Origin: a virus
Taxonomy: Duplodnaviria; Heunggongvirae; Uroviricota; Caudoviricetes
Virus record (IMG/VR): IMGVR_UViG_3300038443_000757
Span: 20,614-84,613 of that record
Direction: 5' to 3' (one strand)
Length of the DNA stretch: 64,000 nt
In this document: positions 3,203-62,152 of the stretch, one piece after another
Numbering within the stretch: position 1 is the first letter of the stretch
Layout of the letters: each line of letters opens with the position of its first letter
Notes under the pieces: generated by a model
Seen by the model: the letters and a program-made list of their open reading frames with translations, nothing else
The model's database searches: none
What the model was told of the DNA's origin: nothing
Position numbers and translations under genes: made by a program

Positions 3203-3364
3203 CGTTATGTTCCATTGATAAATAAAATAAATTATGATACGATTGTGGGTAAGAAGTCCTAGAGACTTTTTGCCCATATTTTTTTTACTTCAAAGTGTTA
3301 TAAAAAATGAATTTCGTGTATATACTATTATCATCAAAGAAAAAACTAAAAAGGAGATGTTGAA

Positions 3365-5142: not shown

Positions 5143-5157
5143 TAGTGCGGTTTTTTG
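5133..5157 (+). terminator. rho-independent terminator
   Basis: CCGCAC-ataata-GTGCGG followed by TTTTTTG. Confidence 0.7.
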
Positions 5158-5185
5158 TTGTTTAAAATCCAATAGGTTATCTTTA

Positions 5186-5240
5186 TGGACTAAATATAAT
5201 ATATAATATTATTATTTATATATACTATATATTATTAAGT
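5186..5240. repeat. A/T-only low-complexity tract (TA-rich)
   Basis: About 55 nt with no G or C: aaatataatatataatattattatttatatatactatatattatta. Confidence 0.5.
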
Positions 5241-5343
5241 TATTTACCTCTATTATAATTAGTCCATTTTTGTAACCTTTTGGATTTTTTCTTTGGACTT
5301 GCATAATAAATCCGGTTTGTTCATAAAATGTTAATTTGGGGTA

Positions 5344-5372
5344 TTGACATGGTTTGGCTTATTTCTTATAAT
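5344..5372 (+). promoter_or_regulatory. consensus sigma-A promoter (TTGACA-17-TATAAT)
   Basis: Exact -35 and -10 hexamers with a 17-nt spacer. Confidence 0.65.
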
Positions 5373-5417
5373 GAGAACACGAACCAAATAAATTTCCATT
5401 GTAGGGAGAATGAAGAA

Positions 5418-5783
5418 ATGAACTTGACAAAAGAGAATAGCTGGCAATTGGGATTTTTGGTTCAAACGTCTTCCGACGAAAAGGAATTTAAAGACTTTTT
5501 CTGGCAAGGCGATGCAAGACAATTCTTCTCCATCTCTGCCTACAGAAGACACAAAATCAAGCAGATGAATATGGGCTTCGAAGAATTTCACAAGCTTTTT
5601 GACAAAAATGAAATACTCTCTATTCAAGATTTGTTTCAGCAACCTATAGACGATTACACAGCAAATAGAATATTAAATAAAATTGCTGGTGGGGATTTGA
5701 CTTCCAAGATTATCTATGATATGTTTATAGACGAAGAAAGGCAGTTAAATGTTGCAAGGCTTGTCCATGATCGGGTAAGGTAA
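5418..5783 (+). CDS. hypothetical protein
   Basis: ATG 7 nt after GGGAGAA. The ORF-track start at 5328 lies upstream of the promoter, so it was trimmed. Confidence 0.5.
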   Translation: MNLTKENSWQLGFLVQTSSDEKEFKDFFWQGDARQFFSISAYRRHKIKQMNMGFEEFHKLFDKNEILSIQDLFQQPIDDYTANRILNKIAGGDLTSKIIYDMFIDEERQLNVARLVHDRVR

Positions 5784-5876
5784 TTGTTGGTAGGAAATTT
5801 TCTGTTGACAAACCTAGCAACTTGTGCTAGAGTTTGTTTACAGGATAAATGAAAGAATAAATGAATGAGGTGATTA

Positions 5877-6104
5877 ATGTTGGAGAGCCATGAAGAGTTA
5901 AAAATTAAATGTACAAATACAGTAAAGCATTATGCAAGCGGAATTGTTTTCTTTGAAAAAGAAAAGGTTTATATAGCCTCTGTTTTTGGCAATAGCCTGA
6001 TTACCAAAGACGAAACAGGCTGTATCCGTACTGTTGCAACGAATAAAGAGAAGGATTGGATGAAAGATAAAGCGTTTAAAGAAATTTTTAAAGTTCAAGA
6101 ATAA
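5877..6104 (+). CDS. hypothetical protein
   Basis: 75-aa ORF with an RBS. Confidence 0.45.
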   Translation: MLESHEELKIKCTNTVKHYASGIVFFEKEKVYIASVFGNSLITKDETGCIRTVATNKEKDWMKDKAFKEIFKVQE

Positions 6105-6142
6105 TAAATTATACTAAACAGCGAAAGGTAGAGGGATACACA

Positions 6143-6397
6143 ATGAGTCATAACAAATACGAGGTAGAAGATTTTGTAAAGAATGCAATTTGGGAACTTT
6201 GTGATGCAGATGAAATCAAGAAGTCATCCAGACTTGTAAAAGATTTAGGATTGTCAGAAGAGGATATTGTTTATGTAGCAGATGACCTTCAAAGCGAGTT
6301 TGAGATTGATATCTATGAAGATGATATGGAAAGATGGGTAACTGTGCGGGATGTTATCAAATTCGTATTGAACAGCATTCAAGAACAGGAGTGGTAG
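6143..6397 (+). CDS. acyl-carrier-protein-like small acidic protein
   Basis: 84 aa. DLGLSEEDIVYVADDLQSEFEIDIYEDD mirrors the ACP [28 protein letters not shown] helix-2/3 region, with a candidate Ser in GLSE. Confidence 0.45.
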   Translation: MSHNKYEVEDFVKNAIWELCDADEIKKSSRLVKDLGLSEEDIVYVADDLQSEFEIDIYEDDMERWVTVRDVIKFVLNSIQEQEW

Positions 6398-6399
6398 AA

Positions 6400-6618
6400 A
6401 TGGAAGAAAAAGTGTTTGAACTCTACACGTGTATGTACGGAGCAATTCTCAAGGGAACAGCGTTTTCAATTGCAGTGTGGAGCAAAGACATGAAATCTGA
6501 TGGAGATTACAAGGTTAAAGTTACAGAATCTTCTGTTCTTGTGTACGATGAAAATGGCATTCCGTCAATGGTTATGACCAAAGGGGTTGAGCTTGTTGAA
6601 GAAGAAAATTGCAGTTGA
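6400..6618 (+). CDS. hypothetical protein
   Basis: ATG after AGGAGTGG. The ORF-track start at 6334 overlaps the upstream gene. Confidence 0.4.
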   Translation: MEEKVFELYTCMYGAILKGTAFSIAVWSKDMKSDGDYKVKVTESSVLVYDENGIPSMVMTKGVELVEEENCS

Positions 6619-7147
6619 TCTTGATTCTACGCTGAACAATCTTGATGAAGTATGGATGGCTCGTTATAACGCTGACTGGCACGACACAAAGACGGTTCTT
6701 GACATGACTGATTGGGACACGTCGAAGATTGTTAGGCCAGAATGCGGACAACGAATCTTTGAATATTTCCATGAAGAAGGATTTTTCGCCAATCTTGGTA
6801 TTCGTGAAGGTGCAAGAAATGTTATGGAATGGCTTAATGAACACTATGACATTTATATTGTAACAGCTTATCATTGGGCAAATTGTGCTGATAAAGCTAA
6901 GTGGGTTATGAAACATCTTCCATTCTTTGACATTAAAAGATTGACGTTCTTGAACGATAAATTTATGTTCAATGCTGATTATCTGGTTGATGATGGTGGA
7001 CATAATGCAGAAGTGTTTCCAAACAAAGTTTTGCTTTTCGATAATCCTTGTCCTTGGAATTGGTATCTTGGAGATAGATTCCAAAGAGCAAAAAGTTGGG
7101 AAGATGTTCATGATTTCTTTTTAAAAGAAATTATTTATGGAGAGTGA
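6587..7147 (+). CDS. 5'(3')-deoxyribonucleotidase, HAD superfamily
   Basis: N-terminal KKIAVDLDSTL (DxDxT). TTG start at 6587; alternative TTG at 6596 after AAAGGGG. Confidence 0.7.
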   Translation: MSLLKKKIAVDLDSTLNNLDEVWMARYNADWHDTKTVLDMTDWDTSKIVRPECGQRIFEYFHEEGFFANLGIREGARNVMEWLNEHYDIYIVTAYHWANCADKAKWVMKHLPFFDIKRLTFLNDKFMFNADYLVDDGGHNAEVFPNKVLLFDNPCPWNWYLGDRFQRAKSWEDVHDFFLKEIIYGE

Positions 7148-7416
7148 TTACAATGTGGTTCTGGATTGTGTATATCGTTTCTGTGATACTGGCCTACTTG
7201 GGCTTTAGGCAAATCACAGACAAGAAAATTCTTGAAGCTGATGGAATTAAATTGATAGATTTTATTATATTTTTTATAGCTGTTCTCACTCCATATTTTA
7301 ATAGTGTGGTTGCAATTATAGTAATTGTAGTAAATATTTTTGAAGTCATTGGACGTATAAATAACAGTCCTTTGTTGCTCGGAAAGATTATAAAGAAAAT
7401 AATGTTTTTTAAATAA
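7144..7416 (+). CDS. small membrane protein
   Basis: Two hydrophobic segments. Confidence 0.5.
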   Translation: MITMWFWIVYIVSVILAYLGFRQITDKKILEADGIKLIDFIIFFIAVLTPYFNSVVAIIVIVVNIFEVIGRINNSPLLLGKIIKKIMFFK

Positions 7417-40924: not shown

Positions 40925-41491
40925 ATGGGTAGTATTTATGCCATTGTAAATAAAATAAATGGAAGAATGTATATTGGTAGAACAAAAAAATTTAAATCCA
41001 GATTGGCTCAACATAATCATATGTTGAGCCAAGGAGAGCATGAAAATAGATTGATTAATGAGGATTTACAAAAATACGGAAAAATAAGTTTTGAAATATA
41101 TGAAATAGAAAATGTATCTGATAATAACAAATTATATCAATTAGAAATAGATTATATAAAAAAGCATAATACCTGTGTGTCTGATGGAGGATTTGGTTAT
41201 AACATTTCTTCTGGAGGTGAATTTTCTTCGGGCGGAGTTAAATTATCTGATGAAATAAAAAATGAAATTAGTAAAAAAATGAAGGGTAGAAAATTCTCTA
41301 AAGAACACTCTAGAAAAAAATCTGAAGCACAAATTGGAAGCAGTAATCCTATTGCTAAAAGAGTTAGCGTAAATGGTAAAATATATGAATGTATTAAGTA
41401 TGTCTCTGTTGAATTAAGCTTAAAGCATAATACTGTTATTTACAGGCTCAATTCTAAAAGTGAAAGATTTAAAGATTGGTTTTATTTGTAG
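40925..41491 (+). CDS. GIY-YIG homing endonuclease (freestanding)
   Basis: GSIYAIVNKINGRMYIGRT...RLAQHN GIY-YIG core; C-terminal NUMOD-like DNA-binding region. Confidence 0.8.
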   Translation: MGSIYAIVNKINGRMYIGRTKKFKSRLAQHNHMLSQGEHENRLINEDLQKYGKISFEIYEIENVSDNNKLYQLEIDYIKKHNTCVSDGGFGYNISSGGEFSSGGVKLSDEIKNEISKKMKGRKFSKEHSRKKSEAQIGSSNPIAKRVSVNGKIYECIKYVSVELSLKHNTVIYRLNSKSERFKDWFYL

Positions 41492-41503: not shown

Positions 41504-42325
41504 ATGAATAGCAATGAACAACAATACCTTAATGCTTTGAGAGATATTTTAAATAATGGACTTGATACTGGAGACAGAACTGGCACAGGGATGCGTAGTA
41601 AATTTGGTGTGACAATGACATTTGACTTGTCAGATGGGAGATTTCCATTGTTGACTACTAAGAAAATGTTTACACGTGGAGTGTTTGGAGAGTTGATTTG
41701 GTTTTTATCTGGCTCTACATCCAATACAGAACTTGAAGAGAAGTACAATGTTAAGTTCTGGAGAGAATGGGCAAATGAAGCTGGAATGCTACCAAATATA
41801 TATGGAAAACAATGGGTTAGATGGGAAGATTCAAAAGGAAATATTTTTAATCAAATTAAATATGTGATTAACGAGATTAAAACCAATCCTCATAGCAGAC
41901 GAATTCTATTCACTGGATGGAATGCTCCTGAAATGCAATATGAAGATACTGCATTGCCCTGTTGCCATAGTACAGTTGTACAATTCTATGTGCGTGGTGA
42001 GTATCTTGACATGTATCATTATCAACGCAGTGGAGACTTCTTCTTAGGCGTTCCAGTTAATATTGCCTCATATGCGGCACTGCTTCAAATGATTGCTGAT
42101 CAAACTGGGTACAAGGCTGGAGTTATGACTCATACAGTTGGTGTAGCTCATATTTATCACAATCATATAGATCAAGTCATTGAACAACTATCAAGAGAGC
42201 CCTATGAAGCTCCAAAGTTAATTATAATGAATAAACCTGAGACTATTTTTGAATATGAGGTATCTGATTTCGCGCTGATTGAATACGAACACCATCCACT
42301 TATCAAGGGAGATGTTGCAGTGTGA
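41504..42325 (+). CDS. thyA: thymidylate synthase
   Basis: DRTGTG, LPCCHS..QFYV, QRSGDFFLGVPVNIASYAALL, AHIYHNH. Confidence 0.92.
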   Translation: MNSNEQQYLNALRDILNNGLDTGDRTGTGMRSKFGVTMTFDLSDGRFPLLTTKKMFTRGVFGELIWFLSGSTSNTELEEKYNVKFWREWANEAGMLPNIYGKQWVRWEDSKGNIFNQIKYVINEIKTNPHSRRILFTGWNAPEMQYEDTALPCCHSTVVQFYVRGEYLDMYHYQRSGDFFLGVPVNIASYAALLQMIADQTGYKAGVMTHTVGVAHIYHNHIDQVIEQLSREPYEAPKLIIMNKPETIFEYEVSDFALIEYEHHPLIKGDVAV

Positions 42326-42901: not shown

Positions 42902-43042
42902 ATGAAGAATCAACTGAATGTAATTGTTACAGATGAATTGATTGATTATTGTGCTGAAAGATTTCTTAAATCTCCATATCAAAATCAAATGACATTTCAA
43001 GCTTATTTCGACAAGATGGTTCAGGAGGAATTGAAATGAAAC
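42902..43042 (+). CDS. small hypothetical protein (46 aa)
   Basis: AAAAGGGAG RBS; ATGA overlap with the next gene. Confidence 0.35.
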
Positions 43043-43461
43043 TCTATCTTGACGATCTTCGTCCATGTCCTGAAGGATTTACAATTGCCAGAACAGTAGA
43101 AGAGGCAATTGATATTTATAAAAAGCATGCATTATCAGAAGAGTCTAAGATTATCTCTCTTGATCATGATCTTGGAGGACTTGACGGAACTTATAAACGT
43201 ACTGGCTATGATTTTTGCAAATGGCTTGTAGAAGAATACTATAATCATTCTGAAGATGGATGGCTTTTTCCTGATATTATTTACTTGCATACAAGCAATC
43301 CTGTCGGCAGAAATAATATGTTTCAATTGTTAGAAAGATATGCTCCAAGTTACACTTTTATTAGCAGAGCACCTATGCCGCACTATGAATCTGATGGTTC
43401 AGTATACAAAGAAGATATTGGTATTGCAAAACTAGAAGAAGACGATGAGTTCTTTAAATAA
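43036..43461 (+). CDS. hypothetical protein with conserved LDHDLG...HTSNPVG motifs (receiver/Rossmann-like fold?)
   Basis: MKLYLDDLRPCP...ISLDHDLG...GYDFCKWL...LHTSNPVGRNNM. Confidence 0.45.
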   Translation: MKLYLDDLRPCPEGFTIARTVEEAIDIYKKHALSEESKIISLDHDLGGLDGTYKRTGYDFCKWLVEEYYNHSEDGWLFPDIIYLHTSNPVGRNNMFQLLERYAPSYTFISRAPMPHYESDGSVYKEDIGIAKLEEDDEFFK

Positions 43462-45264: not shown

Positions 45265-45311
45265 ACATTGGGTCTGCTAGATTAATTTCTAGCAGATTTT
45301 TTATTTTATGC

Positions 45312-45340
45312 TTGACTTACTGGATAATATAGGTTATAAT
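45312..45340 (+). promoter_or_regulatory. class-B promoter (ATGCTTGACTTA; TTGACT-17-TATAAT)
   Basis: Shares the AATGCTTGACTTA -35 context with the 27589 promoter. Confidence 0.5.
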
Positions 45341-45382: not shown

Positions 45383-45411
45383 TTGACTTATTGGTAAATG
45401 TAAGATAAAAT
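45383..45411 (+). promoter_or_regulatory. class-B promoter (AATGCTTGACTTA...TGTAAGA-TAAAAT)
   Basis: TTGACT-17-TAAAAT; contains the 19-mer TAAATGTAAGATAAAATAA. Confidence 0.5.
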
Positions 45412-45441: not shown

Positions 45442-45891
45442 ATGAATAAGTTTAAAGTTGGAGATATTGTAACTGGACTAACTAATTACGAGTGTCATGG
45501 AGAAGAGAATCCATATGGAATTACTGATCATAAAATGACCAAGGGAAAAGTCATTGATTTAGAAGAAGAAGGCTGTATTAAAATTGAAATTTTAGAGCAT
45601 GAAAGTAGCGCATACGTTGGAAAATATTTTTATGTCCGAGAAAAATACTTTAAACTGGTGAAAGGGGAACCAAGTAAACCAGTAGAAAAAGTAGAAGTCT
45701 CTGCTAATCCATCTGGTGGACGAATTAAAGTTATAGAAGAAGTTGGCAAAACATTCTTGATCATCGACAAGAAATATACTATCTGCCTTGAAGGTAATTT
45801 CTCTATTAGCATCCTGAACAAAGACGAAGATGTATACAATGAAGAAATTGGAAAAGCTCTGGCTTACCTCCGTTTCGAACAAAACAAATAA
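45442..45891 (+). CDS. hypothetical protein, FKVGD-module paralog A
   Basis: MNKFKVGDIVTG N-terminus; GGGAGATGTTGAAATG initiation box. Confidence 0.5.
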   Translation: MNKFKVGDIVTGLTNYECHGEENPYGITDHKMTKGKVIDLEEEGCIKIEILEHESSAYVGKYFYVREKYFKLVKGEPSKPVEKVEVSANPSGGRIKVIEEVGKTFLIIDKKYTICLEGNFSISILNKDEDVYNEEIGKALAYLRFEQNK

Positions 45892-45920: not shown

Positions 45921-46418
45921 ATGGAGAACAAATTTAAAGTTGGAGATATTGTAACTGGCAACGAATTGAGTAATGGGGAATATGGAATAATATCAACAGA
46001 TATGCTAAAAGGGGAAGTTGTTGACATTCTTGGTCGTGAAATGACTATTCGGGTTTTAGAGCATAATTGCCCTCAGTATTACGGCGATGAATATGTTGTT
46101 AAACAAGAATGCTTTGATCTTGTAGAAGATAAAAAAGAAGTTAATTCATCAAAAGATAAAGAAGATATTAAAGCAGAAACACCGAAGAGTGATGCCAAAA
46201 TTACTCTTGAAGATATGATTATTGTTGCGGCAGTTGGCGAATTCCTTGAACGGAATTATGAAGATTCTGTTGCAGAAGTGGCAGGCGTTAGAGAACTTAT
46301 TCTATTCACAATGGAGTCTATTAAAGCTACCAAAAGAATTCAAGAAGAAGATAAAAACTTTAACGAAGTTGAAGAAATTAGAAAAATCCTTCGTAAGTAT
46401 GTAAAAAAAGCTCTATAA
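45921..46418 (+). CDS. hypothetical protein, FKVGD-module paralog B
   Basis: MENKFKVGDIVTG N-terminus; tandem to paralog A. Confidence 0.5.
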   Translation: MENKFKVGDIVTGNELSNGEYGIISTDMLKGEVVDILGREMTIRVLEHNCPQYYGDEYVVKQECFDLVEDKKEVNSSKDKEDIKAETPKSDAKITLEDMIIVAAVGEFLERNYEDSVAEVAGVRELILFTMESIKATKRIQEEDKNFNEVEEIRKILRKYVKKAL

Positions 46419-46483: not shown

Positions 46484-47863
46484 ATGTTAAAAGATTTATT
46501 TTCTAATCCTCTTATTTTGACTGATACGTACAATCTATCTCATCAATTTCTCAAGTTCAATAATGACTGGGAAGTTAGCCATGTTTATAATAGAAAGCGT
46601 CCAATGGTACTTTATGGGGTTTCTGAAGCTGTAAATCGTGTTCTTTCTATTAAAATTGAAATGTGGATGGTTGACGAAGCTGAACAATATGCAAAAGAAA
46701 AAAGTATGCCATTCCCAAGAGAGTTGTGGGAACGAGTTGTAAATGAATTCAATGGCTATGCACCAATCATGATTGAATCTCTTCCTGAAGGATCATATAT
46801 TCCTGCTGGTACACCATTCATGCAGATTCGTAATACCGTTGAAGGATTTGGCGAATTAAAGGATTGGTGGGAAGGTATTATTCTTCAAAATGCTTTTGCC
46901 TCTGGTTGCGCTACACGTGCATATGAAATGGCAAAGTATCTTAAAGACAACGATCTTCCAATGATTCGTTTTCATAGTTTTGGATGGCGTGGGCATCAAT
47001 GTCCAGAAAGTGGATATTGGGCTGGTACTGCTTGGAATCTATTCCTTGTAGGAACTGATGATTTCCATACTAAAAAGCATACACCAAAAGCCAAGATTGG
47101 TAGCATTCCTGCACTTGCACATAAGGTAACTCAGCAATTCGATAAAGAATATGATTGTTATATTCGTGCAATTGATTTTGCTGTCAATACGCCACTTCGA
47201 ACTGTGGCATTAGTTATTGATACTTATGATGCTAATCGTTTTATTAATCAGTATCTTATTGGCCTTGCTCGCTATGCACTTGACAAAGGTGTCCATATTG
47301 TTTGCCGTCCTGACAGTGGAGATGTTCTTGATCAAGCTATTGAGATTTACAAAGTATGTATTGAAAACAATCTTGCAAACGTCTCTGTGATCATTGGAGA
47401 AGGCATTACGTTTGAGGTGGTCAAAGCATATGATGCAAAGCTTAAAGATGCTGGAGTGCCATTGGCGTTCGTCTCTTATGGTATTGGTGCTGGATTCTAC
47501 AAGGACATTGACCGTGACTACCTTGGATTTGCAATGAAGGTTGCATTCTCTAATGGTAAGCCACGTATGAAATTTGGAATGACAGCGTTGAAGCGCAGTA
47601 TTCCCGGCAAGGTTTCTATCATTAAAAAAGACGGAGATTTGCTCGTCATTCCTGAAGGAAGTCTTATGTCCTATACGTACAATGATCTTTATGAGATTAT
47701 TTATGTTCATGATGACACTACTGAAGAGCCAATTATCAAAACAACTGAATGGAATGAAATTTATGATCGTGTTCAAGAAGTTGATGATCATCAAAAAGTA
47801 ATCTACATTTCTCAGGAAATTGAAAATATGATTGCTGAATTCAAAGAACAATATAAAGGGTGA
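46484..47863 (+). CDS. nadV: nicotinamide phosphoribosyltransferase (NAMPT/NadV)
   Basis: N-terminal NPLILTDTYNLSH (cf. NAMPT ..TDSYKVTH); about 460 aa type II PRTase. Confidence 0.8.
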   Translation: MLKDLFSNPLILTDTYNLSHQFLKFNNDWEVSHVYNRKRPMVLYGVSEAVNRVLSIKIEMWMVDEAEQYAKEKSMPFPRELWERVVNEFNGYAPIMIESLPEGSYIPAGTPFMQIRNTVEGFGELKDWWEGIILQNAFASGCATRAYEMAKYLKDNDLPMIRFHSFGWRGHQCPESGYWAGTAWNLFLVGTDDFHTKKHTPKAKIGSIPALAHKVTQQFDKEYDCYIRAIDFAVNTPLRTVALVIDTYDANRFINQYLIGLARYALDKGVHIVCRPDSGDVLDQAIEIYKVCIENNLANVSVIIGEGITFEVVKAYDAKLKDAGVPLAFVSYGIGAGFYKDIDRDYLGFAMKVAFSNGKPRMKFGMTALKRSIPGKVSIIKKDGDLLVIPEGSLMSYTYNDLYEIIYVHDDTTEEPIIKTTEWNEIYDRVQEVDDHQKVIYISQEIENMIAEFKEQYKG

Positions 47864-47868
47864 TATGT

Positions 47869-48642
47869 ATGGAAATGAATATGAACAATAAAGATGCAAA
47901 TGGAGATATTATTAGCGCAACACCGCCTAGGCCTTGGACAATTGGCGATCCTCCACCATATAATCATGAAAAAAATAACACAATCTGGACTGGGCCATCA
48001 ACTTTCCCATATCTTACACCTATGCCTAAAAAACCATTTAAATTTGGTTTTTTGCTTGGACGATTCCAGCATATTCATATTGGTCATGAACAAATGATTG
48101 ATAGAGCGCTTGATGTTTGCGAGAAGGTTTTGGTCATTGTTGGCTCTGCACAAGATGATGCACGAATTACCAATCCAATTCGCAATCCGTTTGAAACTCA
48201 TTTTCGCATTAGGCTTATCAATGAGATTTATAAAGACAAGCCAAATCTCTTTGTAACGTCTATGCCTGATTTGACTCACGAAAATGATCATAGCTGGGCA
48301 TGGGGCAACTTTGTTCTTCAAAATGTTGCACTGCGAGCTAATCAGTATGATATCAAAGAAAGTCCTGATATTATGGTTTTTGGTAATGACGAAGAAAGAA
48401 TGTCGTGGTTTAATCCAGACGATATCAAGACAGTTAATCAACTGATTGTTGCGCGTGGAAACATTGACATTAGTGCTACTCAAATGCGCAATTATCTTGT
48501 TGAAAATAATTTTTGGAAATGGCGGCAGTATGTAAACTTGAAACTTTCACCATTGTTCCCTGTAATTCGTGAAGAACTTTTCAAAGTAGAACACTACAGA
48601 AAGTTGGCTGAAGAAAATGGAACAATCAATGCCCACAAGTAA
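47869..48642 (+). CDS. nicotinamide-nucleotide adenylyltransferase (NadM/NatV-type)
   Basis: GFLLGRFQHIHIGHEQMI (HxGH nucleotidyltransferase motif); ISATQMR C-terminal motif. Confidence 0.75.
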   Translation: MEMNMNNKDANGDIISATPPRPWTIGDPPPYNHEKNNTIWTGPSTFPYLTPMPKKPFKFGFLLGRFQHIHIGHEQMIDRALDVCEKVLVIVGSAQDDARITNPIRNPFETHFRIRLINEIYKDKPNLFVTSMPDLTHENDHSWAWGNFVLQNVALRANQYDIKESPDIMVFGNDEERMSWFNPDDIKTVNQLIVARGNIDISATQMRNYLVENNFWKWRQYVNLKLSPLFPVIREELFKVEHYRKLAEENGTINAHK

Positions 48643-49174
48643 ACTTTGCAAGGAAAATTATAAAGGTGCCATTTACACTGATCGAACTGAAGAAATTTCA
48701 TTTCCAGACGGAAAGAAAATTACTAGAGATGTTATTGTAAAAAATGAAGTGGCGGTCGCACTGGTTCATAATATTGACACTGATACTGTAGTTCTTATTA
48801 GAGAATTTAGAGTTGGTTCTATGAAGTATGAACTTGGTGGCGTTGCTGGCATTGTTGAAGTTGGTGAATATCCCATGAATGCAATTGTTAGAGAACTTGT
48901 TGAAGAAACTGGGTATAGTGATACAGTTATTGTACAATCCCTTGGAACAACTATGACTTCCTCTGGCTTTACCAATGAAAAAGTTCATCACTTTTACATT
49001 AAAGTGAGGGGCTTGAGAGGCGATCAGAATCTTGATGCAGATGAATCTATTGAAGTTATTGAGCGTCCTTTTGAAGATATTGCTATTATGATGGCAAATG
49101 GTGAAATTACTTCTAATCATTTACACGCTTGCTTGTTAAAACTTATGATGAATAATGGATATGAATTGGTATGA
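48617..49174 (+). CDS. Nudix hydrolase (ADP-ribose pyrophosphatase-like)
   Basis: Nudix box GGVAGIVEVGEYPMNAIVRELVEETGY. Confidence 0.8.
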   Translation: MEQSMPTSKLCKENYKGAIYTDRTEEISFPDGKKITRDVIVKNEVAVALVHNIDTDTVVLIREFRVGSMKYELGGVAGIVEVGEYPMNAIVRELVEETGYSDTVIVQSLGTTMTSSGFTNEKVHHFYIKVRGLRGDQNLDADESIEVIERPFEDIAIMMANGEITSNHLHACLLKLMMNNGYELV

Positions 49175-49177
49175 TGA

Positions 49178-49342
49178 ATGGGAATGATTAAATTTGAATA
49201 TAAAGAAGTACCTTTTCATTCACTGTCGCCTCATCATGGGCAACTTAGTATAAAATTATTAAATGAATTAGGTGCCCAAGGTTGGGAACTTGTAACTATT
49301 ATCAGTGGAGAATGTATCTTTAAACGACAAATAAAAGAATAA
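49178..49342 (+). CDS. DUF4177-like small protein (54 aa)
   Basis: KFEYKEV...LNELGAQGWELVTI resembles the DUF4177 family. Not in the ORF track. Confidence 0.4.
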   Translation: MGMIKFEYKEVPFHSLSPHHGQLSIKLLNELGAQGWELVTIISGECIFKRQIKE

Positions 49343-49349
49343 ACAACTA

Positions 49350-49400
49350 TTGACATTTGGCACTCTATATGGTAAAATGGATTTTACTTGCTAGAGTGCC
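49350..49400 (+). promoter_or_regulatory. sigma-A promoter (TTGACA-17-TAAAAT) embedded in 9-bp inverted repeat GGCACTCTA/TAGAGTGCC (operator-like)
   Basis: IR arms at 49359-67 and 49392-400 bracket the -10 and the start site. Confidence 0.5.
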
Positions 49401-49423
49401 ATTTATTTTAAGGAGGTTAAAAG

Positions 49424-51232: not shown

Positions 51233-53539
51233 ATGGAATTAAATGTAATTGATAATTGTGCTTGTTGTGCAACTGAAGATGGATTTGTAAATCTCCATTT
51301 ACACACAGCATATTCGCTTCTCGATGCACTTAGTAAGCCAGAAGATATTATAGCAAAAGTAAAAGGTTTAAATCAAAGAGGATTTGCTTGTACGGAACAC
51401 GGCAACGTTCATAGTTCTGTAAAAGCTTATAAATTGGCTAAAGAAAATTCTTTGAAGTTTATTTATGGATTAGAGGCATATATCACTGAAGATAGATTTA
51501 TCAAAGATAAAACAAATAAATACTATCATCTAACTATCCTAGCAAAAAATGAACAGGGTAGACAGAACATCAATAAGCTTGTAACAATCTCCAATCTTGA
51601 AGGATTTTATTTTAAACCTCGTATTGACTTTAAATTGCTTGAAGAATTTGGTGATGGCTTAATCATCATGTCAGGATGTATGGCCTCTGAATTGCAACAA
51701 GCATTAGCTGGAGGAAAGATTGGTAATGGTGATGTTGAAATAACATCTGGCAACATTGAGAGAGCCAAAGAAATTGCAAGACGTTATCGTAATGCATTTG
51801 GTGAGGATTATTATCTTGAAGTTCAATCACACAGAGATAAGCGTCAACAGCAATTAAATCGTGCGATAGTTGACATTGCAAAAGACTTAGGCATTCAATG
51901 GGTTGCTACTGCTGACAGTCATTTTGTCAATGAAGAAGATTTAGATTTGCACAGGGTTTTCATTGGTATCAACCGTAACAAAGACGATTTTGAATCTGAC
52001 GAAACATATCAAGACACACAGATTCAAAGTGAAAAAGAGGCATGGAATCTTCTTATGTCTTTGACTGAAGATGAGCGTAATGTTGCAATTAGGAATACTC
52101 TGAACATAATGGATAAATGCAATGCTCCATTGCCACTTTCAGCACCTTTAATTCCTCATGTTAAAGTTCCAGAAGGTTTTGAAACTGAGGAAGATTACTT
52201 GCAACATTTGTGTAACGAGGGATGGAAGTTTAGGAAGATTGGATATAAATCAAAGAAGCTTCAACAAGAATATAGGGACAGACTTATTTATGAATTTAAT
52301 GCGATCAAGGATATGGGATTCACAGGATACTATCTCCTTGTTTATGGATACGCAACATCTGTTCGCAGAAGAGGTATTGCACGTGGTTCTGGTGGAGGTT
52401 CGCTTGTAGCTTATCTGATTAATATTGTAGATATTGATCCAATTGAACATGGATTGTATTTTGAGCGCTTTATTGATGTTGCCCAACTTGATTTAATCAA
52501 GAGTGGAGAGCTTAAGCCTGAAGAGATTAAAATACCAGATTTTGATTTGGATTTCGGCACAAAAGAACGCGATCTTGTCTATAACAATATCGTTACTGAA
52601 CATGGGTATGAGCATGTTGTAGCTCTTGGTCAATTTGGTTACATCTGGACCAAGAGCGCTATCAAGGATGTTGGTAGAGTGCTTGGAGTGCCATTTGAAG
52701 TAACGAATGAGATAACGAAGCTACTAGGAGAGGATACGATTGCAGAAGGGCTTACAAGTGGCATTCTGAAGCCCTATCAGCGTCAATATCCAAGACTGTT
52801 TGAGTATGCAATGAAACTAGAAGGATTACCCCGCTCATATGGAATGCATCCATGCGGTAAGGTAGTAACGATTGATCCTGCTGTTTATTATACAGGATTA
52901 TCACAGAAGGAAGGTCAGCTTGTCTTACAAGTTGACATGAAAGATGCAGAAGCACTTGGTTTAGTTAAGGTAGATTTACTTGGACTTCGTACAGTTGATG
53001 TAATCTATGACACACTAGATATGATTGGCAAGGACACTGAATATATCCGTAACATCACATACGATTGTGCTGAGATGTTAGAAATCTTTAAAAATGGATT
53101 TACTGACGGAGTTTTCCAGTTCGAGAGCGAAGGTATGAAGCAAACATTGATAAATATGATTCCTACCCATTTAGATGATCTAGGAGTTGTAAATGCTCTG
53201 TATAGGCCAGGAAGTTTGAAATATATCAAAAACTACATTGATAGGAAGCACGGAAGAGAACAATTTGAATATCTTCACCCTGATCTTGAACGTATTCTTA
53301 AAATCTCTTATGGCATTATTGTATATCAAGAACAACTGATTGAGATTGGACGAATGGCTGGCATGCGTAATCCAGACCTTTTACGTCAAGCTACAGGTAA
53401 AAAAGATATGAAGAAACTTGCGAAAGCTGAGCCTGAACTTCGTGATGGCTTGTACAAAAGAGGTTGGACAAAGGAGCAGGTAGATCAATTGTGGGAAGAT
53501 ATGCTGAACTTCGCCAAATATTCATTTAATAAAGCCCAT
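51233..53539 (+). CDS. dnaE: DNA polymerase III alpha (DnaE-type) exon 1: PHP domain, palm and fingers up to FNKAH
   Basis: PHP motif VNLHLHTAYSLLDAL; ends in the conserved YSFNKAH fingers motif. The 3' boundary is inferred. Confidence 0.7.
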
Positions 53540-53714
53540 AAAATGTGTGTGGCTTAGTGTGGCGACATACTAAGAAAATCCTTCTAATTGCGGGGAACTC
53601 CTAAAGACTTCAATACCAACTTAATATGGTGACATGATTAAGGGCGTTGCTAACTACAACGATATGGTAAAAAGTTGAAGTATAAATAATATGGACAATC
53701 CGCATCGAGACTTC

Positions 53715-53743
53715 TTGAAATAATTTACATCCCATGATACAAT
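53715..53743 (+). promoter_or_regulatory. promoter for intron ORF (TTGAAA-17-TACAAT)
   Basis: Inside the intron, upstream of the AAAGGAGG RBS of the HEG. Confidence 0.4.
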
Positions 53744-53766
53744 AGAAAGAAAGGAGGTTATAAATT

Positions 53767-54771
53767 ATGGCAAAAAAATATACTCAAAAACAAAAAGAAC
53801 TTATTTTAAAATTATATCAAGAGGCACAAGACTTGGATGAGGCTATATTAAGATTAAAAGAACAAGGAATAGTCATGACTAGGCAGGCAATGGCTGATAT
53901 GGCTCACGATAATGGTATAAAAAGAAAAAGAATTTATACAAAACAAAACAAATTATCAGTCATAGAGATAAGGCAATTAGTTTCAGATTATGAGTCTGGT
54001 ATTTTTACTATGGAAGAATTGATAAAAAAGTATGGTTTTAAAACAAGAAAATCAATAACAGATAAAGTTAAACTTTATAATGGCAAAATGAGAACGCAAG
54101 ATGAAGCTAATAAAATGAGAAAAACTTATGAAGAAACAATGTTTAATAAGCTTGATGCGGAATGGAAAGCTTATATGGTTGGACTGCTTCTTACCGATGG
54201 TTATATTACCAATGATCAAATAGGACTTGATTTAACCGATGAAGATGCAATAAGTTATCTTGCAGAAATGACTGGAAAGGGTAATTACACGACAATTGTT
54301 GATAGTTGTAAAAGTAAAAAGGCAAAATATAGACTAACTCTTAATTCTAAAACAATTATAGATGATTTGACTAGATTTGGGGTTGTGCCAAGAAAATCTC
54401 TAACATTAAAGGGGCCGTTGCTCAATGAAGATGAAAGAAATTATATTCCACATATCTTTAAAGGAATTATTGATGGAGACGGCTGGATTAGAAGTGATGG
54501 CAAAGAATTTTTTATCGTTTCTGCTTCAAGAGATTTTCTTGAGTGGTGCATAAAAGAGTTAATTCTATTAGGAATGAGTAATTTAAAAATTACTCAAAAA
54601 ACATTTGATAATGAAAAGTGGAATGACTGTTTTCTTGTTAGGACTGCTCTTAAATCAAATATAACTATTTTAAAAGAGAAAATATACGTCTATGACTTAG
54701 GGATGGGTCGTAAACGTGAAAAATTATTTCAAGAAGGGCGTTCAGAGACTACCACAAGGAAATCTCAATAA
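53767..54771 (+). CDS. LAGLIDADG homing endonuclease (double-motif) with N-terminal helix-turn-helix region
   Basis: Two LAGLIDADG motifs: MVGLLLTDGYI and FKGIIDGDGWI. Confidence 0.8.
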   Translation: MAKKYTQKQKELILKLYQEAQDLDEAILRLKEQGIVMTRQAMADMAHDNGIKRKRIYTKQNKLSVIEIRQLVSDYESGIFTMEELIKKYGFKTRKSITDKVKLYNGKMRTQDEANKMRKTYEETMFNKLDAEWKAYMVGLLLTDGYITNDQIGLDLTDEDAISYLAEMTGKGNYTTIVDSCKSKKAKYRLTLNSKTIIDDLTRFGVVPRKSLTLKGPLLNEDERNYIPHIFKGIIDGDGWIRSDGKEFFIVSASRDFLEWCIKELILLGMSNLKITQKTFDNEKWNDCFLVRTALKSNITILKEKIYVYDLGMGRKREKLFQEGRSETTTRKSQ

Positions 54772-54844
54772 ACTTTGAGATTATGGTATAGTCCAGACCA
54801 CAACGTATATATAATGCGACTAAGGAAATCTTAGTGTGGTAAAG

Positions 54845-55735
54845 TCACAAGCTTATGCAATTATTGCAATGATCTGTGCATATCTGAAAGCATTCCACCC
54901 AACTGAGTTTATGTGTGCATGGCTTAACTCCTTAGTAGATCATCACGATAAAATTGAAACTGCTTTCAAAGAGGCTAAACGAATGGGAGTTAAAATAAAG
55001 CCATTAAATTTCAAAGATGCAAATGCTTTATGTAAAGTGGTTGATGGAGAGCTTGTCTACGGAATCTCTTTGATTAAACACTGTAACGCTCAGATTGCAG
55101 AAGATATTGCAAAGCTTCAGCCAGCAAATCGTTTTGTTGATATGATCATTCAAATCAAAGAACTTACTTCAATCAACTCTAAACAACTTGATATCCTTAT
55201 CAAACTTGATTTCTTCTCTGAGTATGGAAGCAAAGAACTATTGCTTACAATCCTTAAAGAAGTCAACGATGGCAAGAGCAGATATAACAAGACGCACAAG
55301 GAGGCAACTAAGCTCAAACGAATTGCGGCACTTCATGAATATGAGGACGAGCTTAGACAGGGACAAGTTGACTTGTCCATTAAACCATATGAACAAATTG
55401 CATTTGAACTTGATCATTATGGTTTCATCAAAACAACTTTTAAAGAAATTCCTAAAACAATACTAGCTGTAATGGATATCGACATGAAGCCTAAAACAGC
55501 TTATATTGCAGTTAAGTCATTCTGCTATAAAACTGGAGACACGTTTGAGTTCAGAGTCAAGAAGGATAAGTTTTATGGCAAAAAAGATATTGAATCTTTT
55601 GAAGTTGGAGATTCCATTAAGATCAAAAATCTTTCTGAAAAAGCTAGAGTACGTAAAGATGAAACTACTGGCAAATGGATTGAAACTGGAGTAAATGATT
55701 ATTATCTTGAGAAAGCAATAAAAATAAAACTATAA
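54845..55735 (+). CDS. dnaE: DNA polymerase III alpha (DnaE-type) exon 2: rest of fingers, HhH and C-terminal OB region
   Basis: SQAYAIIAMICAYLKAFHPTEFMCAWLNS aligns to DnaE ([25 protein letters not shown]). Confidence 0.65.
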   Translation, partial: SQAYAIIAMICAYLKAFHPTEFMCAWLNSLVDHHDKIETAFKEAKRMGVKIKPLNFKDANALCKVVDGELVYGISLIKHCNAQIAEDIAKLQPANRFVDMIIQIKELTSINSKQLDILIKLDFFSEYGSKELLLTILKEVNDGKSRYNKTHKEATKLKRIAALHEYEDELRQGQVDLSIKPYEQIAFELDHYGFIKTTFKEIPKTILAVMDIDMKPKTAYIAVKSFCYKTGDTFEFRVKKDKFYGKKDIESFEVGDSIKIKNLSEKARVRKDETTGKWIETGVNDYYLEKAIKIKL

Positions 55736-56792: not shown

Positions 56793-57002
56793 ATGATTAG
56801 AGTTAGTGGAGATGCAAGATTTATGGTTTACTTTAATGTTGAAATCGACATGACCGAAGAAGAGTGGGAAGGGTTGTCATACGGATATCAAGAGGCAATT
56901 ATTGATCAACATATTGGCTACGAAGAAATGAAGAATGCCGAAATGACTGATTGTGACGTTGATGATGTTATTGAAGTAGATGATGAAAATAGAAACTTTT
57001 AA
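56793..57002 (+). CDS. acidic hypothetical protein
   Basis: ATG after GGAGG. Confidence 0.4.
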   Translation: MIRVSGDARFMVYFNVEIDMTEEEWEGLSYGYQEAIIDQHIGYEEMKNAEMTDCDVDDVIEVDDENRNF

Positions 57003-57348
57003 AGTTGTAATTGCTGGCTCAAGAGGATTTAATGATTATAATCTTTTAAAAAAGAAACTTGATTTAATCCTAAATGATATCTCAATTCCCATTGAAATTG
57101 TTTCAGGTGGAGCAAGGGGAGCAGATAAATTAGGAGAAAGATATGCTAAAGAAAAAAGGTATTTGATCAAAAGATTTATTCCTGATTGGAATATTGGTAA
57201 ACATGCTGGACTTATTCGAAATGAAGAAATGGCTAAATATGCTGATGCTTGTATATGCTTTTATGATGGTGAAAGTAATGGGACTGGACACATGATAAAA
57301 ATGGCTAAAAAATACAATTTAAAACTAAGGGTGATAAACTATGGATGA
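56980..57348 (+). CDS. SLOG/DprA-LOG-like Rossmann-fold protein (DUF2493-like)
   Basis: VVIAGSRGF...IVSGGARGADKLGERYA motif pattern of the Smf/DprA/LOG superfamily. Confidence 0.45.
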   Translation: MMKIETFKVVIAGSRGFNDYNLLKKKLDLILNDISIPIEIVSGGARGADKLGERYAKEKRYLIKRFIPDWNIGKHAGLIRNEEMAKYADACICFYDGESNGTGHMIKMAKKYNLKLRVINYG

Positions 57349-59902: not shown

Positions 59903-62089
59903 TTAAACCTCTGCTCTCCAATTTAGCGTTACATTATTTGTTCCTGCAATTGGTGCAGTTGCAAATGTTATCGTTAGATTTGTTGAATCAGCAGTTACAC
60001 GCTTAACTACAGCATTGCCAGCATCAATACTAACAGCTTGTACAAAGTACGCGGTAGGCGTAGCTGAAAGTCCATGAGCAATTGTTTTTGTTGTACTTGA
60101 ACCATCTCCATTATAAACCAATTGACCTGATCTTTGTTGTTTGACGGAGCCAAATTCAACCCATGTTCCAACTTTTCCACTAGCAGTACATACCCAACCA
60201 ATAGAACCTCCTTGAGATGGAGCAGTATTAAAAATAATGTCTCCCCTGTAATATTGTTTAACAGTTCCTGTTGGAACTGCTGAAGCATACATAATACGTT
60301 TGCCAAAAATACTATTGCCAGAAATTGTTGTAAATTGTGGTTTATCATCGTTGTTCAATGATGCAAATTGTCCTCCGTAAGCAAGCTCATTACCAGTAAT
60401 GACGCAGTTAACAACGTAATCAACAGTAGAAGGAAGGTTCATGGCGTTTTGACCAACTTTTTTACCAAGTGGAAGTCCAGTAGAAATGATAATAGTATTG
60501 TCAGTATCTTGATAAACGCTATTACCCACAGCGGTTAAAGATTGAATTCTAGTGTTTGAACCAAAATCAATACCACTATACAATGTATAGCTTGAACCAT
60601 CAGCGTAATTATAACCAGTTTGATAATTATTAATAACGTTTTCACTCAAAGTTACTTGATTTATTCTTGTTAGAAGATTTGCATTAATATATATACCTTG
60701 TCTGTGAACCTGATAAATATTGTTTCCTTGTAAAGTCAGGTTGTTCATAGTCTCGCCAAGATCACCCATTTTCCAAATGTCCACATTAATACCAAGCTTC
60801 CCGCCGCCAATAATTGTATTATCCTGAATTGTGCAAGTATAGGCTCTAGCTACACTAATACCACTTCCTGTTGATGTTCCTCCATTGCTTGGAATGTTGA
60901 AATCATAAATTGGAGCATGGATATAATTATCGGAAATCTTTACATAATGTCCAGTAATTGAAATTGCATGATAATTTGTTCCGTCGCCAGCAACCTCAGT
61001 TCCATAGTTATAAATGATATTTTCAGTTACAACCATAGATGACTTGTCATTCTGTTCAAGGAATACCCCATATTGCCCACAGTTACGAATTACATTGTTA
61101 CTAACTTTGATTTTAGCCATGTTTGATGAAGAGTGAGTAATAGCACTATGAGGATGATCATAGATAAAGTTTGAAATAATGCTGATATCGCCGGGAATGT
61201 CATTCCCAACATTATCATCTTGAGTATCAGTTGTTGTATACCCAATATCTCCTTCAATACCTTTATCTCCATTGTTATGTACTGTATTGCCAATGATAAG
61301 AAGTCTTTTTTGATATGAATACATAATTCCTTCGTCAATATTGTCGTGTACAATATTATTTGAAACAGTATAATCATATGAATAAGGCTTTTCTTGAATA
61401 CTTTGAACGCCTAAGTATCCGCCAGCTAATGAAATACCATTACGATTGACTCCATTTGCATATGTGTATCCATTGAATCCATTGTATACAAATTGTCCAT
61501 TGTGATGAACATGATTTTTATCAATTGTTACTTGGGTACATCCAAAAGTATATATTCCTGATCCAATAAAATTTCTTGCTTCACAATTTGTAATACTCAA
61601 TTTTTTAACATACAAACATTTAAATCCAAAGCTATTTGCTTCTTTCAAAAAACCAGTTTGATCAATCATGCTATAATTCCCATCAAGAACTAATCCATCA
61701 AAATGAATATTGTAGCCAAATGCATCCTTTGTAAAAGCATTTTTATTGTTATATGTCCCGGGGACAAATATTGAATTTATTCCTTTATAAAAATAATTTG
61801 GATCATTCTTAACAGTTGTTGGAATAATTTTAATTACACTTAATCCCTTGTTGCCAAAAAGCTTCATGTTAGACGGAACAATTATTGGCTTACTTACATC
61901 TACCATATATGCTACTGATGGAGTAGGAAAATAAACAGCATTAATTCCCTTCTTATTTGCTTCGATGATTGCATCTTGGATTGCATTAGTGTCATCTGCT
62001 ATTCCATTACCTATAGCGCCATGAAGTGTAACACTAATTATATTTTCATTCTCTTTGATAGTATCAAACTTTTTTGAAAACAATCCCAT
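59903..62089 (-). CDS. tailspike/tail fibre protein with pectate-lyase-like right-handed beta-helix
   Basis: N-terminal VTLHGAIGNGIADDTNAIQDAI (Pectate_lyase_3-type). Gly/Asn-rich repeats through the body. Start trimmed to the ATG after GAGGAGG. Confidence 0.65.
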   Translation of the reverse strand: MGLFSKKFDTIKENENIISVTLHGAIGNGIADDTNAIQDAIIEANKKGINAVYFPTPSVAYMVDVSKPIIVPSNMKLFGNKGLSVIKIIPTTVKNDPNYFYKGINSIFVPGTYNNKNAFTKDAFGYNIHFDGLVLDGNYSMIDQTGFLKEANSFGFKCLYVKKLSITNCEARNFIGSGIYTFGCTQVTIDKNHVHHNGQFVYNGFNGYTYANGVNRNGISLAGGYLGVQSIQEKPYSYDYTVSNNIVHDNIDEGIMYSYQKRLLIIGNTVHNNGDKGIEGDIGYTTTDTQDDNVGNDIPGDISIISNFIYDHPHSAITHSSSNMAKIKVSNNVIRNCGQYGVFLEQNDKSSMVVTENIIYNYGTEVAGDGTNYHAISITGHYVKISDNYIHAPIYDFNIPSNGGTSTGSGISVARAYTCTIQDNTIIGGGKLGINVDIWKMGDLGETMNNLTLQGNNIYQVHRQGIYINANLLTRINQVTLSENVINNYQTGYNYADGSSYTLYSGIDFGSNTRIQSLTAVGNSVYQDTDNTIIISTGLPLGKKVGQNAMNLPSTVDYVVNCVITGNELAYGGQFASLNNDDKPQFTTISGNSIFGKRIMYASAVPTGTVKQYYRGDIIFNTAPSQGGSIGWVCTASGKVGTWVEFGSVKQQRSGQLVYNGDGSSTTKTIAHGLSATPTAYFVQAVSIDAGNAVVKRVTADSTNLTITFATAPIAGTNNVTLNWRAEV

Positions 62090-62112
62090 TTTAAATTCCT
62101 CCTCATGATGTA

Positions 62113-62152
62113 TAAAAAGAGGATGAATAATAAAATTCATCCTCTTTTATTT
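62113..62152 (-). terminator. terminator hairpin (AAGAGGATGAAT/ATTCATCCTCTT)
   Basis: 12-bp stem flanked by an A-run and a T-run, between two minus-strand genes. Confidence 0.55.

Follow-up and report, generated by a model that had tools for sequence, protein, structure and literature searches.

A predicted NAD+ reconstitution cassette of three separate genes in a large Bacillales-type phage

Introduction

The depletion of nicotinamide adenine dinucleotide (NAD+) is among the commonest anti-phage strategies of bacteria, and the phage-encoded NAD+ reconstitution pathways NARP1 to NARP3 are under active study. The closest described relative of the system discussed here is NARP2 of Vibrio phage KVP40, which consists of a nicotinamide phosphoribosyltransferase (NAMPT; NadV/Nampt) and a nicotinamide mononucleotide (NMN) adenylyltransferase (NMNAT) that is fused to a Nudix domain (NatV/Nmnat-Nudix). 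Nampt and Nmnat of KVP40 raise NAD+ and overcome Thoeris and other NAD+-depleting systems (Osterman et al. 2024). According to the published work NARP2 defeats Thoeris, DSR, SIR2-HerA, and aRES, and it makes surplus NAD+ even if no defence system is present. NARP1, i.e. Adps plus Namat, pursues a common goal, the synthesis of NAD+ from the products of NADases. Most Nudix domains of phages fall into the T4 NudE and the NadM-associated clades, the latter being fusions (PMC9503650).

Here we analyse a 64,000-nt stretch from the genome of an uncultured tailed phage (positions 20,614 to 84,613 of IMG/VR record IMGVR_UViG_3300038443_000757), hereafter the window. As it represents 64 kb of a ~169-kb genome, all gene absences reported below refer to the window. 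Three consecutive open reading frames (ORFs) on the + strand (46484-49174) encode a NAMPT-family enzyme (ORF1, NadV), a stand-alone NMNAT (ORF2), and a Nudix hydrolase (ORF3). An earlier note on this DNA had read them as an NAD+ salvage cassette, and we favour, with a probability of about 75%, a more specific version of that reading: a NARP2-type module, i.e. nicotinamide salvage, built of three separate, co-transcribed enzymes.

Results

Architecture of the cassette

The cassette and KVP40 NARP2 both combine a NAMPT-family enzyme with an NMNAT of the NadM type and a Nudix activity. Both are predicted to follow the amidated route that depends on phosphoribosyl pyrophosphate (PRPP), with no Adps, and both have the same predicted anti-defence role. 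Nevertheless, the architecture differs. In the window NMNAT and Nudix are encoded separately and all three genes are adjacent, whereas natV of KVP40 is not found within 9 kb of nadV. Moreover, the Nudix protein is of the NudF/YffH type rather than of the NadM-fused type and was probably recruited independently, and NadV, which is only 26% identical to its KVP40 counterpart, is a host-like member of a separate Bacillales clade, the host lineage being Firmicutes.

The three gene identities proposed in the earlier note are upheld at the family level by structure matches and by profile matches well outside what chance would give, and the motifs on which it relied, TDTYNLSH, the HxGH box, and the Nudix box, are all present. 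ORF2 and ORF3 are indeed separate and overlap by exactly 26 nt (48617-48642). The earlier note needs correcting, however, in that the Nudix belongs to another family than the Nudix half of NatV-like fusions.

NadV

ORF1 matches Pfam NAPRTase (E = 2e-12), NCBIfam PRK09198 (7e-47), and phrog_448, "nicotinamide phosphoribosyl transferase" (3e-51); its match to Pfam NAMPT_N is below threshold. All 32 matches among solved structures are NAMPTs, the best being the Xanthomonas enzyme (7yqo, 3.9e-22), followed by mammalian NAMPTs, and no nicotinate enzyme occurs among these 32. The motifs TDTYNLSH (aa 13-20, nt 46520-46543), HSFGWRG, GTDD, LAHK, RPDSGD, and IDRD are found in ORF1, so that the Tyr of TDxY, HxFGxRG, GTD, the catalytic His, RPDSG, and RD are retained relative to KVP40 NadV and human NAMPT. 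We take the Tyr to be the stacking residue, the GTD aspartate to be the determinant of nicotinamide specificity, and the His to be the residue that is phosphorylated. The earlier note had considered that the closest homologues might turn out to be nicotinate enzymes; with exclusively NAMPTs as nearest solved relatives and the GTD aspartate in place, this is not what we find.

The 120 best homologues of NadV share 48-57% sequence identity with it and come from assemblies of Paenibacillus, the Bacillus cereus group, B. methanolicus, Peribacillus, Priestia, Brevibacillus, and Viridibacillus, many of them located on 130-170-kb contigs and some on chromosomes. In a neighbour-joining tree of 12 sequences the Bacillales NadV clade is separated from the Nampt group of KVP40 and BcepSaruman as well as from the Namat group, represented by the Prs-adjacent genes of Felixounavirus, Kayvirus, and Bacillus phage PJN02. 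Judged by this placement, NadV would form a separate Bacillales clade rather than be part of the KVP40 clade. The same clade includes a cellular NadV (52% identity to ORF1) encoded on the chromosome of Paenibacillus xanthanilyticus (locus L009), where nadV lies between the gene for an NrtR-type regulator (Nudix plus winged helix) and the gene for a short, stand-alone NMNAT of 185 aa. In contrast to the cassette, this operon has NrtR upstream and no catalytic Nudix downstream, whereas the window contains no match to NrtR.

The stand-alone NMNAT

ORF2 matches CTP_transf_like (3e-12) and models for NadM, NadR, and archaeal NMNATs (1e-10 to 5e-15), its best structural matches being the NadM-Nudix protein 2qjo, the NMNAT MJ0541 (1f9a), 6gye, and NadR. 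It carries GRFQHIHIGHEQM at aa 64-76 of the 257-aa form (nt 48058-48096), comprising the sequence GRFQHIHIGH (nt 48058-48087), and ISATQMR towards the C-terminus (nt 48469-48489); the combination of GRFQxxHxGH and a C-terminal ISxTxxR within a member of the nucleotidyltransferase fold family is characteristic of the NadM/archaeal type. In 14 homologues GRFQHxHxGH, GSAQ, RNP, and ISATxxR are invariant, and the Pro-rich N-terminal extension of ~55 aa is variable among relatives. The 257-aa form starting at ATG 47869 is identical to JGI gene call P0001 and occurs on eight contigs, the longest having 169,219 bp.

The closest resemblance of ORF2 is to the NMNAT domain of the NadM-Nudix fusions (Synechocystis slr0787, 2qjo; BcepSaruman gp115; PX29 gp200), with which it has the GRFQxxHxGH and ISxTxxR motifs in common. 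However, it lacks a fused Nudix domain (257 aa vs. 341-368 aa), contains GRFQHIH instead of GRFQPFH, and has the variable N-terminal extension. Its nearest relatives in cultured phages are such NMNAT-Nudix fusions of 345-368 aa, i.e. BcepSaruman gp115, PX29 gp200, and RsoM2USA_22, which served as fused references in place of KVP40 natV; no close relative of the stand-alone NMNAT was found in cultured phage genomes.

A scan of IMG/VR with the single ORF2 protein gave no match, whereas in an alignment-based scan the family proved common in uncultured phages (118 relatives), and 80 loci were kept. Most of these loci have no nadV within 4 kb (e.g. L053, 2975-4546). Among the 80 loci the NMNAT gene is accompanied by NadE within 4 kb (33 loci) and by a Macro domain (25 loci), largely on 100-180-kb contigs, and in 4 loci by a pair of an Adps and a Namat-like gene, suggesting that this NMNAT family is a reusable module that may serve several phage NAD pathways. 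The most complex arrangement that we noticed is L039 (IMGVR_UViG_3300029305_001452, 1794-7242), which encodes, in a row, Thg1, an isochorismatase/PncA-like protein, an Adps-like protein, the stand-alone NMNAT, a NAPRTase/NAMPT_N protein, a Macro domain, and NadE, i.e. a NARP1-like pair with the NMNAT between its two genes plus enzymes of the deamidated route. L046, L064, and L097 also pair Adps and a Namat-like gene with the stand-alone NMNAT.

The Nudix hydrolase

ORF3 matches NUDIX (2e-10) and NudE (1e-15) as well as the curated models for NudF, YffH/AdpP, NudK, and ADP-ribose diphosphatase. Its Nudix box GIVEVGEYPMNAIVRELVEETGY (aa 78-100, nt 48848-48916) fits the canonical pattern Gx5Ex7REUxEExGU, and the box residues and the downstream Glu143 are invariant. 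Matches in the PDB comprise ADP-ribose pyrophosphatases, the Nudix/Act protein of B. methanolicus, NudK, NudE, and NUDT5. An AlphaFold model (33 sequences; predicted local distance difference test score 94.5) has a two-domain fold with an N-terminal β-sheet domain, as found in dimeric ADP-ribose pyrophosphatases and nucleoside diphosphate (NDP)-sugar hydrolases, and Foldseek aligns ~180 columns of it with 5c7t, 3o61, 9jax, 5i8u, and NUDT5 at TM scores of 0.75-0.81. These structural neighbours include a Bdellovibrio NDP-sugar hydrolase bound to ADP-ribose, the ADP-ribose pyrophosphatases from Mycobacterium tuberculosis and Klebsiella, and NUDT5. Both the sequence and the predicted structure thus place ORF3 in the NudF/YffH/NUDT5 family of NDP-sugar hydrolases.

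Compared with NudF, B. methanolicus Act, M. tuberculosis Rv1700, NUDT5, YffH/NudK, and NudE, the fold is alike over the full length, including the N-terminal β domain, and so are the canonical Nudix box and the downstream acidic catalytic residue; the sequence identity, however, is only ~20-30%, and the X-loop has changed from SPGF to S[SATM]GFTNE. The relatives of ORF3 retrieved by tblastn from a phage collection belong to Lysinibacillus, Lactobacillus, Listeria, and Staphylococcus phages, with no T4-like phage among them, and the best of these, the Nudix gene of Lysinibacillus phage LysYB1, has no nadV beside it.

Conservation of the trio

On large phage contigs associated with Bacillales the order NadV-NMNAT-Nudix, always with unfused genes, recurs at 14 or more loci. 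In the Paenibacillus-associated locus L001 (94-kb contig) the trio shows an 11-nt overlap, in L003 (170-kb JGI contig) two small genes are inserted and 16 nt overlap, and in L010 (SPbeta-like, B. cereus, 138-kb contig) NadV and NMNAT are followed by a weak Nudix match, an ORF of 202 aa, and a membrane protein of the PQ-loop type. In 11 of the 80 IMG/VR loci the three genes stand in this order and abut or overlap; six of the 11 have the PQ-loop gene in addition.

The succession of the trio, the 202-aa ORF, for which no family match was obtained, and the PQ-loop protein is found in the SPbeta-like relatives L010 (8702-9965), L028, L034-L036, L051, and L080. The PQ-loop protein might transport a pyridine precursor. 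Neither gene is present in the window.

Table 1. Features of the cassette, its flanks, and other parts of the window (SD, Shine-Dalgarno sequence)
Feature	Position	Strand	Length	Remarks
GIY-YIG/I-TevI-like endonuclease ORF	40925-41491			directly upstream of thymidylate synthase gene
Thymidylate synthase	41504-42325			
cREC_REC protein	43036-43461			E = 8e-28
Terminator-like hairpin	45270-45299	+	12-bp stem	followed by TTTATTTTAT; ends the preceding NlpC/P60 gene
Promoter candidate	45312-45340	+		sigma-70-like consensus match, TTGACT-17-TATAAT
Promoter candidate	45383-45411	+		sigma-70-like consensus match, TTGACT-17-TAAAAT
Upstream paralogue	45442-45891	+	149 aa	behind good SD
Upstream paralogue	45921-46418	+	165 aa	behind good SD
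ORF1 (nadV)	46484-47863	+	459 aa	NAMPT-family, predicted nicotinamide phosphoribosyltransferase; SD AAAGGA 8 nt upstream
ORF2, alternative GTG start	47860	+	260 aa	overlaps nadV stop
ORF2	47869-48642	+	257 aa	stand-alone NadM/archaeal-type NMN adenylyltransferase (predicted); ATG behind AAAGGG
ORF3	48617-49174	+	185 aa	Nudix hydrolase, NDP-sugar (ADP-ribose/GDP-mannose) pyrophosphatase family
Mini-ORF	49178-49342	+	54 aa	DUF4177-like; starts 3 nt past the Nudix stop
Promoter of next operon (predicted)	49350-49378	+		TTGACA-17-(TG)TAAAAT, 11/12 matches, extended TG; -10 inside hairpin
Hairpin/palindrome	arms 49358-49378 and 49381-49401, to 49409	+	21-nt arms	followed by TTTATTTT at 49402-49409
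Next operon ORF	49424			SD AAGGAGG
DnaE-like Pol III alpha, split	51233-55735			51233-53557 matches aa 1-786 and 54836-55735 matches aa 782-1073 of intact homologues
LAGLIDADG-type ORF	53767-54771			in the Pol III alpha gap
YAcAr/YspA-type SLOG protein	56980-57348			E = 5e-16
Beta-helix (pectate-lyase-like) protein	59903-62140	-	745 aa	

Discussion

Predicted pathway and the points that weigh against it

In the pathway that we propose the NadV-like enzyme would convert nicotinamide and PRPP to NMN, from which the stand-alone NadM-type adenylyltransferase would make NAD+ with ATP as cosubstrate. The Nudix protein would most likely split ADP-ribose (ADPR), the other product of TIR, SIR2, and SEFIR NADases, into AMP and ribose-5-phosphate, and host Prs would turn the latter into PRPP. 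With the help of host Prs, the cassette would thus regenerate NAD+ from the two NADase products at the expense of ATP. These steps correspond to the reactions reported for NadV and NatV of KVP40 under the name NARP2. What the sequences show is the family of each protein, the catalytic motifs, the dense co-directional arrangement with its overlaps, and the recurrence of the trio in related phages; the substrates, the flux, and the anti-defence role are predictions. No Adps/Prs-like gene was detected in the window (tblastn with four Adps queries, E above 0.03), nor was there any match to NadE, PncA-like, or Macro proteins, and the lack of Adps, NadE, PncA, and Macro points to the amidated, PRPP-dependent route. 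By analogy, a link of the cassette to NAD+-depleting defences agrees with the published NARP2 pathway.

Several observations speak against this assignment. The PRK09198 score of ORF1 (160 bits) is well under the equivalog cutoff of NCBIfam (405), an Ala precedes the catalytic His (ALAHK) where other NAMPT and Namat proteins have a Glu (xEHS), a clade-specific deviation, and the identity to the Nampts of KVP40 and BcepSaruman is only ~26-27%, similar to that to NARP1 Namat. Since ORF1 falls into its own clade, the phylogeny does not settle its specificity. The NMNAT family may accept nicotinate mononucleotide (NaMN) in addition to NMN, because NadE adjoins it in 33 of the 80 phage loci. As to ORF3, its structural neighbours include the GDP-mannose hydrolase of E. 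coli, and the X-loop of the phage Nudix clade reads S[SATM]GFTNE in place of the SPGF of cellular ADP-ribose pyrophosphatases, i.e. the X-loop proline is absent from ORF3 and the whole clade (SSGF, SAGF, STGF). This proline contacts the terminal ribose and has been proposed as a determinant of ADP-ribose pyrophosphatases (Dunn et al. 1999, summarised in PMC5389931). Finally, the ~105 kb of the ~169-kb genome outside the window could contain Adps, NadE, or PnuC.

A general metabolic role

It is possible, if doubtful, that the cassette has no dedicated function in counter-defence and is a general auxiliary metabolic module, captured from a host NAD regulon, that raises NAD+ for replication. It is situated in the replication and nucleotide-metabolism arm of the phage together with ribonucleotide reductase (RNR), ThyA, dihydrofolate reductase (DHFR), guanylate kinase, and Pol III alpha, the NrtR-NadV-NMNAT operon of the Paenibacillus chromosome could represent the type of source, and the excess of NAD+ generated by NARP2 even when no defence is active would suit such a role. 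On the other hand, NARP2 is published to defeat the four defence systems named above, and a Nudix hydrolase of the ADP-ribose type is most sensible where ADP-ribose accumulates, i.e. after NADase action. As the enzymology is identical, a general metabolic role and a NARP2-type function in reconstitution are compatible.

The substrate of the Nudix hydrolase

The earlier note had called ORF3 an ADP-ribose pyrophosphatase. The Nudix box and the family membership agree with this name, but, given that the X-loop proline is lacking, it should be understood as a family-level call only. The fused Nudix domain of KVP40 NatV, for comparison, was reportedly described as an ADP-ribose pyrophosphatase by Lee and colleagues in 2017. 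ORF3 might instead act on another NDP-X compound, e.g. GDP-mannose, NDP-sugars, NADH, ADPR-1''-phosphate, or ADPR-derived signals made by TIR proteins, and would then not recycle ADP-ribose. Besides the altered X-loop, the top structural neighbours, which comprise E. coli YffH and a broad-specificity NDP-sugar hydrolase, and the related Nudix genes of Herelleviridae, which have no nadV nearby, are in line with this view. Nevertheless, we regard it as distinctly unlikely, since the gene is found time and again in close linkage with those for NMNAT and NadV, and since ADP-ribose pyrophosphatases make up most of the sequence and structure neighbours.

An improbable and more speculative variant is that the Nudix of this phage-specific clade, which has lost the X-loop proline and occurs coupled to the stand-alone NMNAT in large Bacillales phages, is retuned to modified ADP-ribose, either ADPR-1''-phosphate as made by RES-type NADases or ADPR-derived signals made by TIR proteins. 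If so, the cassette would destroy a defence product or signal and at the same time return ribose-phosphate to NAD+ synthesis, constituting a three-enzyme, ADPR-recycling form of NARP2 that was assembled independently of KVP40 NatV.

Deamidated and ADPR-transferase routes

We consider it very unlikely that the cassette follows the deamidated route, with ORF1 as nicotinate phosphoribosyltransferase (NAPRT), ORF2 as NaMN adenylyltransferase, and an NAD synthase required for completion. Every matching NCBIfam model is named "nicotinate phosphoribosyltransferase", and the frequent proximity of NadE to this NMNAT family, joined in L039 by the isochorismatase/PncA-like gene, would fit such a pathway. 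However, NAPRT is missing among the solved-structure matches of ORF1, the PRK09198 score contrasts with at most 63 bits for PncB-type models, the GTD aspartate is kept, the cellular relatives are arranged as NrtR-NadV-NMNAT, and NadE occurs in 0 of 11 trio loci. With neither NadE nor PncA in the window, we reject this route.

We deem it highly improbable that ORF1 is a NARP1-type Namat, i.e. a nicotinamide ADPR-transferase that uses ADPR-pyrophosphate instead of PRPP. Namat is homologous to ORF1, the two families are equally distant from it (26-27% identity each), ORF1 forms a separate clade in the neighbour-joining tree, and four of the IMG/VR loci have a member of the same NMNAT family next to an Adps plus Namat-like pair. 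Yet ORF1 aligns with Nampt over the full length (102-139 bits) and with Namat only from residue ~80-91 onwards (62-86 bits), the Namat-like genes of the Adps loci are only 23-28% identical to ORF1, and the conserved partner of ORF1 is the NMNAT. No Adps/Prs-like gene adjoins nadV in L001, L003, L009, or L010, and the NARP1 reading is rejected as there is none in the window either. Within the NARP2-type module ADP-ribose would thus be channelled through Nudix, host Prs, NadV, and NMNAT, and not via ADPR-pyrophosphate.

Origin of the separate genes

ORF2 and ORF3 lie in different frames, i.e. they do not form the single polypeptide that defines NatV. In a tblastn search of the window the NMNAT half of the BcepSaruman fusion matches ORF2 (E = 5.6e-11), whereas its Nudix half has no match to ORF3 or elsewhere in the window; likewise, ORF3 does not match the NadM-Nudix models (PRK05379), and 2qjo is missing from its PDB matches. 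By family, the Nudix protein is of a different kind and cannot be regarded as half of a NatV/NadM fusion that became detached. That ORF2 and ORF3 are one NatV-like gene, broken by a sequencing or assembly frameshift or joined by programmed frameshifting in the A-rich overlap, as the fusions in cultured phages might suggest, is extremely improbable: the split is kept in L001, L003, L010, and 11 IMG/VR loci at 37-50% identity and with differing junctions (about -26 to +45 nt), a persistence across diverged loci that makes either frameshift very unlikely, a TAG stop codon just 27 nt ahead of the ATG closes the ORF3 frame, and no NMNAT ORF exceeds 260 aa across the 80 IMG/VR loci. Assembly of the module probably took place in Bacillales phages, where a host-type nadV-nadM pair was combined with a NudF-like Nudix that had been recruited independently; fission of a NatV fusion does not appear to be its source.

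If the NARP2-type reading is correct, large Bacillales phages carry a NARP2-like pathway composed of unfused parts, whose NadV clade is common to the NrtR regulons of their hosts. This would widen the catalogue from which phage escape from Thoeris-, DSR-, and SEFIR-type defences in Gram-positive hosts may be predicted. Moreover, the natural three-gene version separates the contribution of the Nudix genetically. The current understanding is not overturned.

Transcription and translation signals

The hairpin that ends the preceding NlpC/P60 gene would mark the upstream edge of the cassette transcription unit, and the two sigma-70-like candidates behind it are the likely start of this unit, although promoter matches in the region are overall no more numerous than expected by chance. 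Good Shine-Dalgarno sequences precede ORF1 and the genes on either side of the cassette; ORF3 and the mini-ORF lack a clear one, which fits translational coupling, and for ORF3 the overlap and the missing Shine-Dalgarno sequence suggest coupling to the NMNAT gene.

Downstream of the cassette, the earlier note had seen an operator-like palindrome. The inverted repeat is real, its arms being 81% complementary with perfect 10-nt outer parts (TGGCACTCTA/TAGAGTGCCA), but it is better read as an intrinsic terminator: the RNA is predicted to fold with -21.3 kcal/mol (z = -4.7), and none of 200 shuffled sequences was as stable. Probably the palindrome terminates the cassette transcript and is nested with the promoter of the next operon. 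Binding of a repressor to 49358-49401 as an operator for the downstream promoter is rather unlikely. The centre of the repeat lies shortly past the -10 element of a near-consensus promoter, as that of an operator could, but the repeat forms a stable RNA hairpin that leads directly into UUUAUUUU where a string of genes ends, as intrinsic terminators do, and it is unrepeated in the 64 kb, with one exact site and near-matches at chance level. An Rfam scan of 43-52 kb revealed no NAD+ riboswitch or other RNA family.

Neighbouring genes and genome setting

The DUF4177-like mini-ORF that the earlier note placed after the module is present: it narrowly exceeds the gathering threshold of Pfam DUF4177 (PF13783; 26.6 vs. 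25 bits, E = 7e-6, profile partly covered) and matches phrog_18269 (6e-14). It has no counterpart at this position in relatives. The two ORFs upstream of nadV are tandem paralogues, 39% identical within ~95 aa at the N-terminus (E = 8e-13), and have an N-terminal domain of ~70 aa, starting MxxKFKVGDIVTG, in common. They match no Pfam or PHROG family, have no counterpart beside nadV in L001, L003, or L010, and are probably co-transcribed with the cassette. Being absent beside nadV in relatives, neither these paralogues nor the DUF4177 ORF were accepted as cassette members.

In this large phage of the Bacillales type, the window takes in the arm devoted to replication and nucleotide metabolism. 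In addition to the enzymes mentioned above it encodes a RecJ-like protein, RNase H, ClpP, RusA, a YunG-like protein, and an MrpR-type recombinase. Judged by the polymerase the nearest cultured relative is Brevibacillus phage Sundance (58% amino-acid identity), and the cassette DNA has no match in 50,697 phage records (megablast).

Two proteins encoded near the cassette, a cyclic-phosphate processing receiver (cREC_REC) and a YAcAr/YspA-type SLOG protein, contain domains from predicted nucleotide- or ADPR-processing systems; in L010 a YAcAr homologue is located two genes upstream of nadV. The Pol III alpha gene, compared with the intact homologues of 1073-1079 aa in L001 and L003, is split around a LAGLIDADG-type ORF, probably by insertion of a homing endonuclease or an intron, and in L002 the split is at another place (741 + 332 aa). 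The GIY-YIG ORF next to thymidylate synthase is a second mobile endonuclease in this arm. At ~59.9 kb both coding strand and GC skew flip, and the β-helix protein encoded there on the minus strand probably functions as tail fibre or depolymerase and would lie where the structural module begins or ends.

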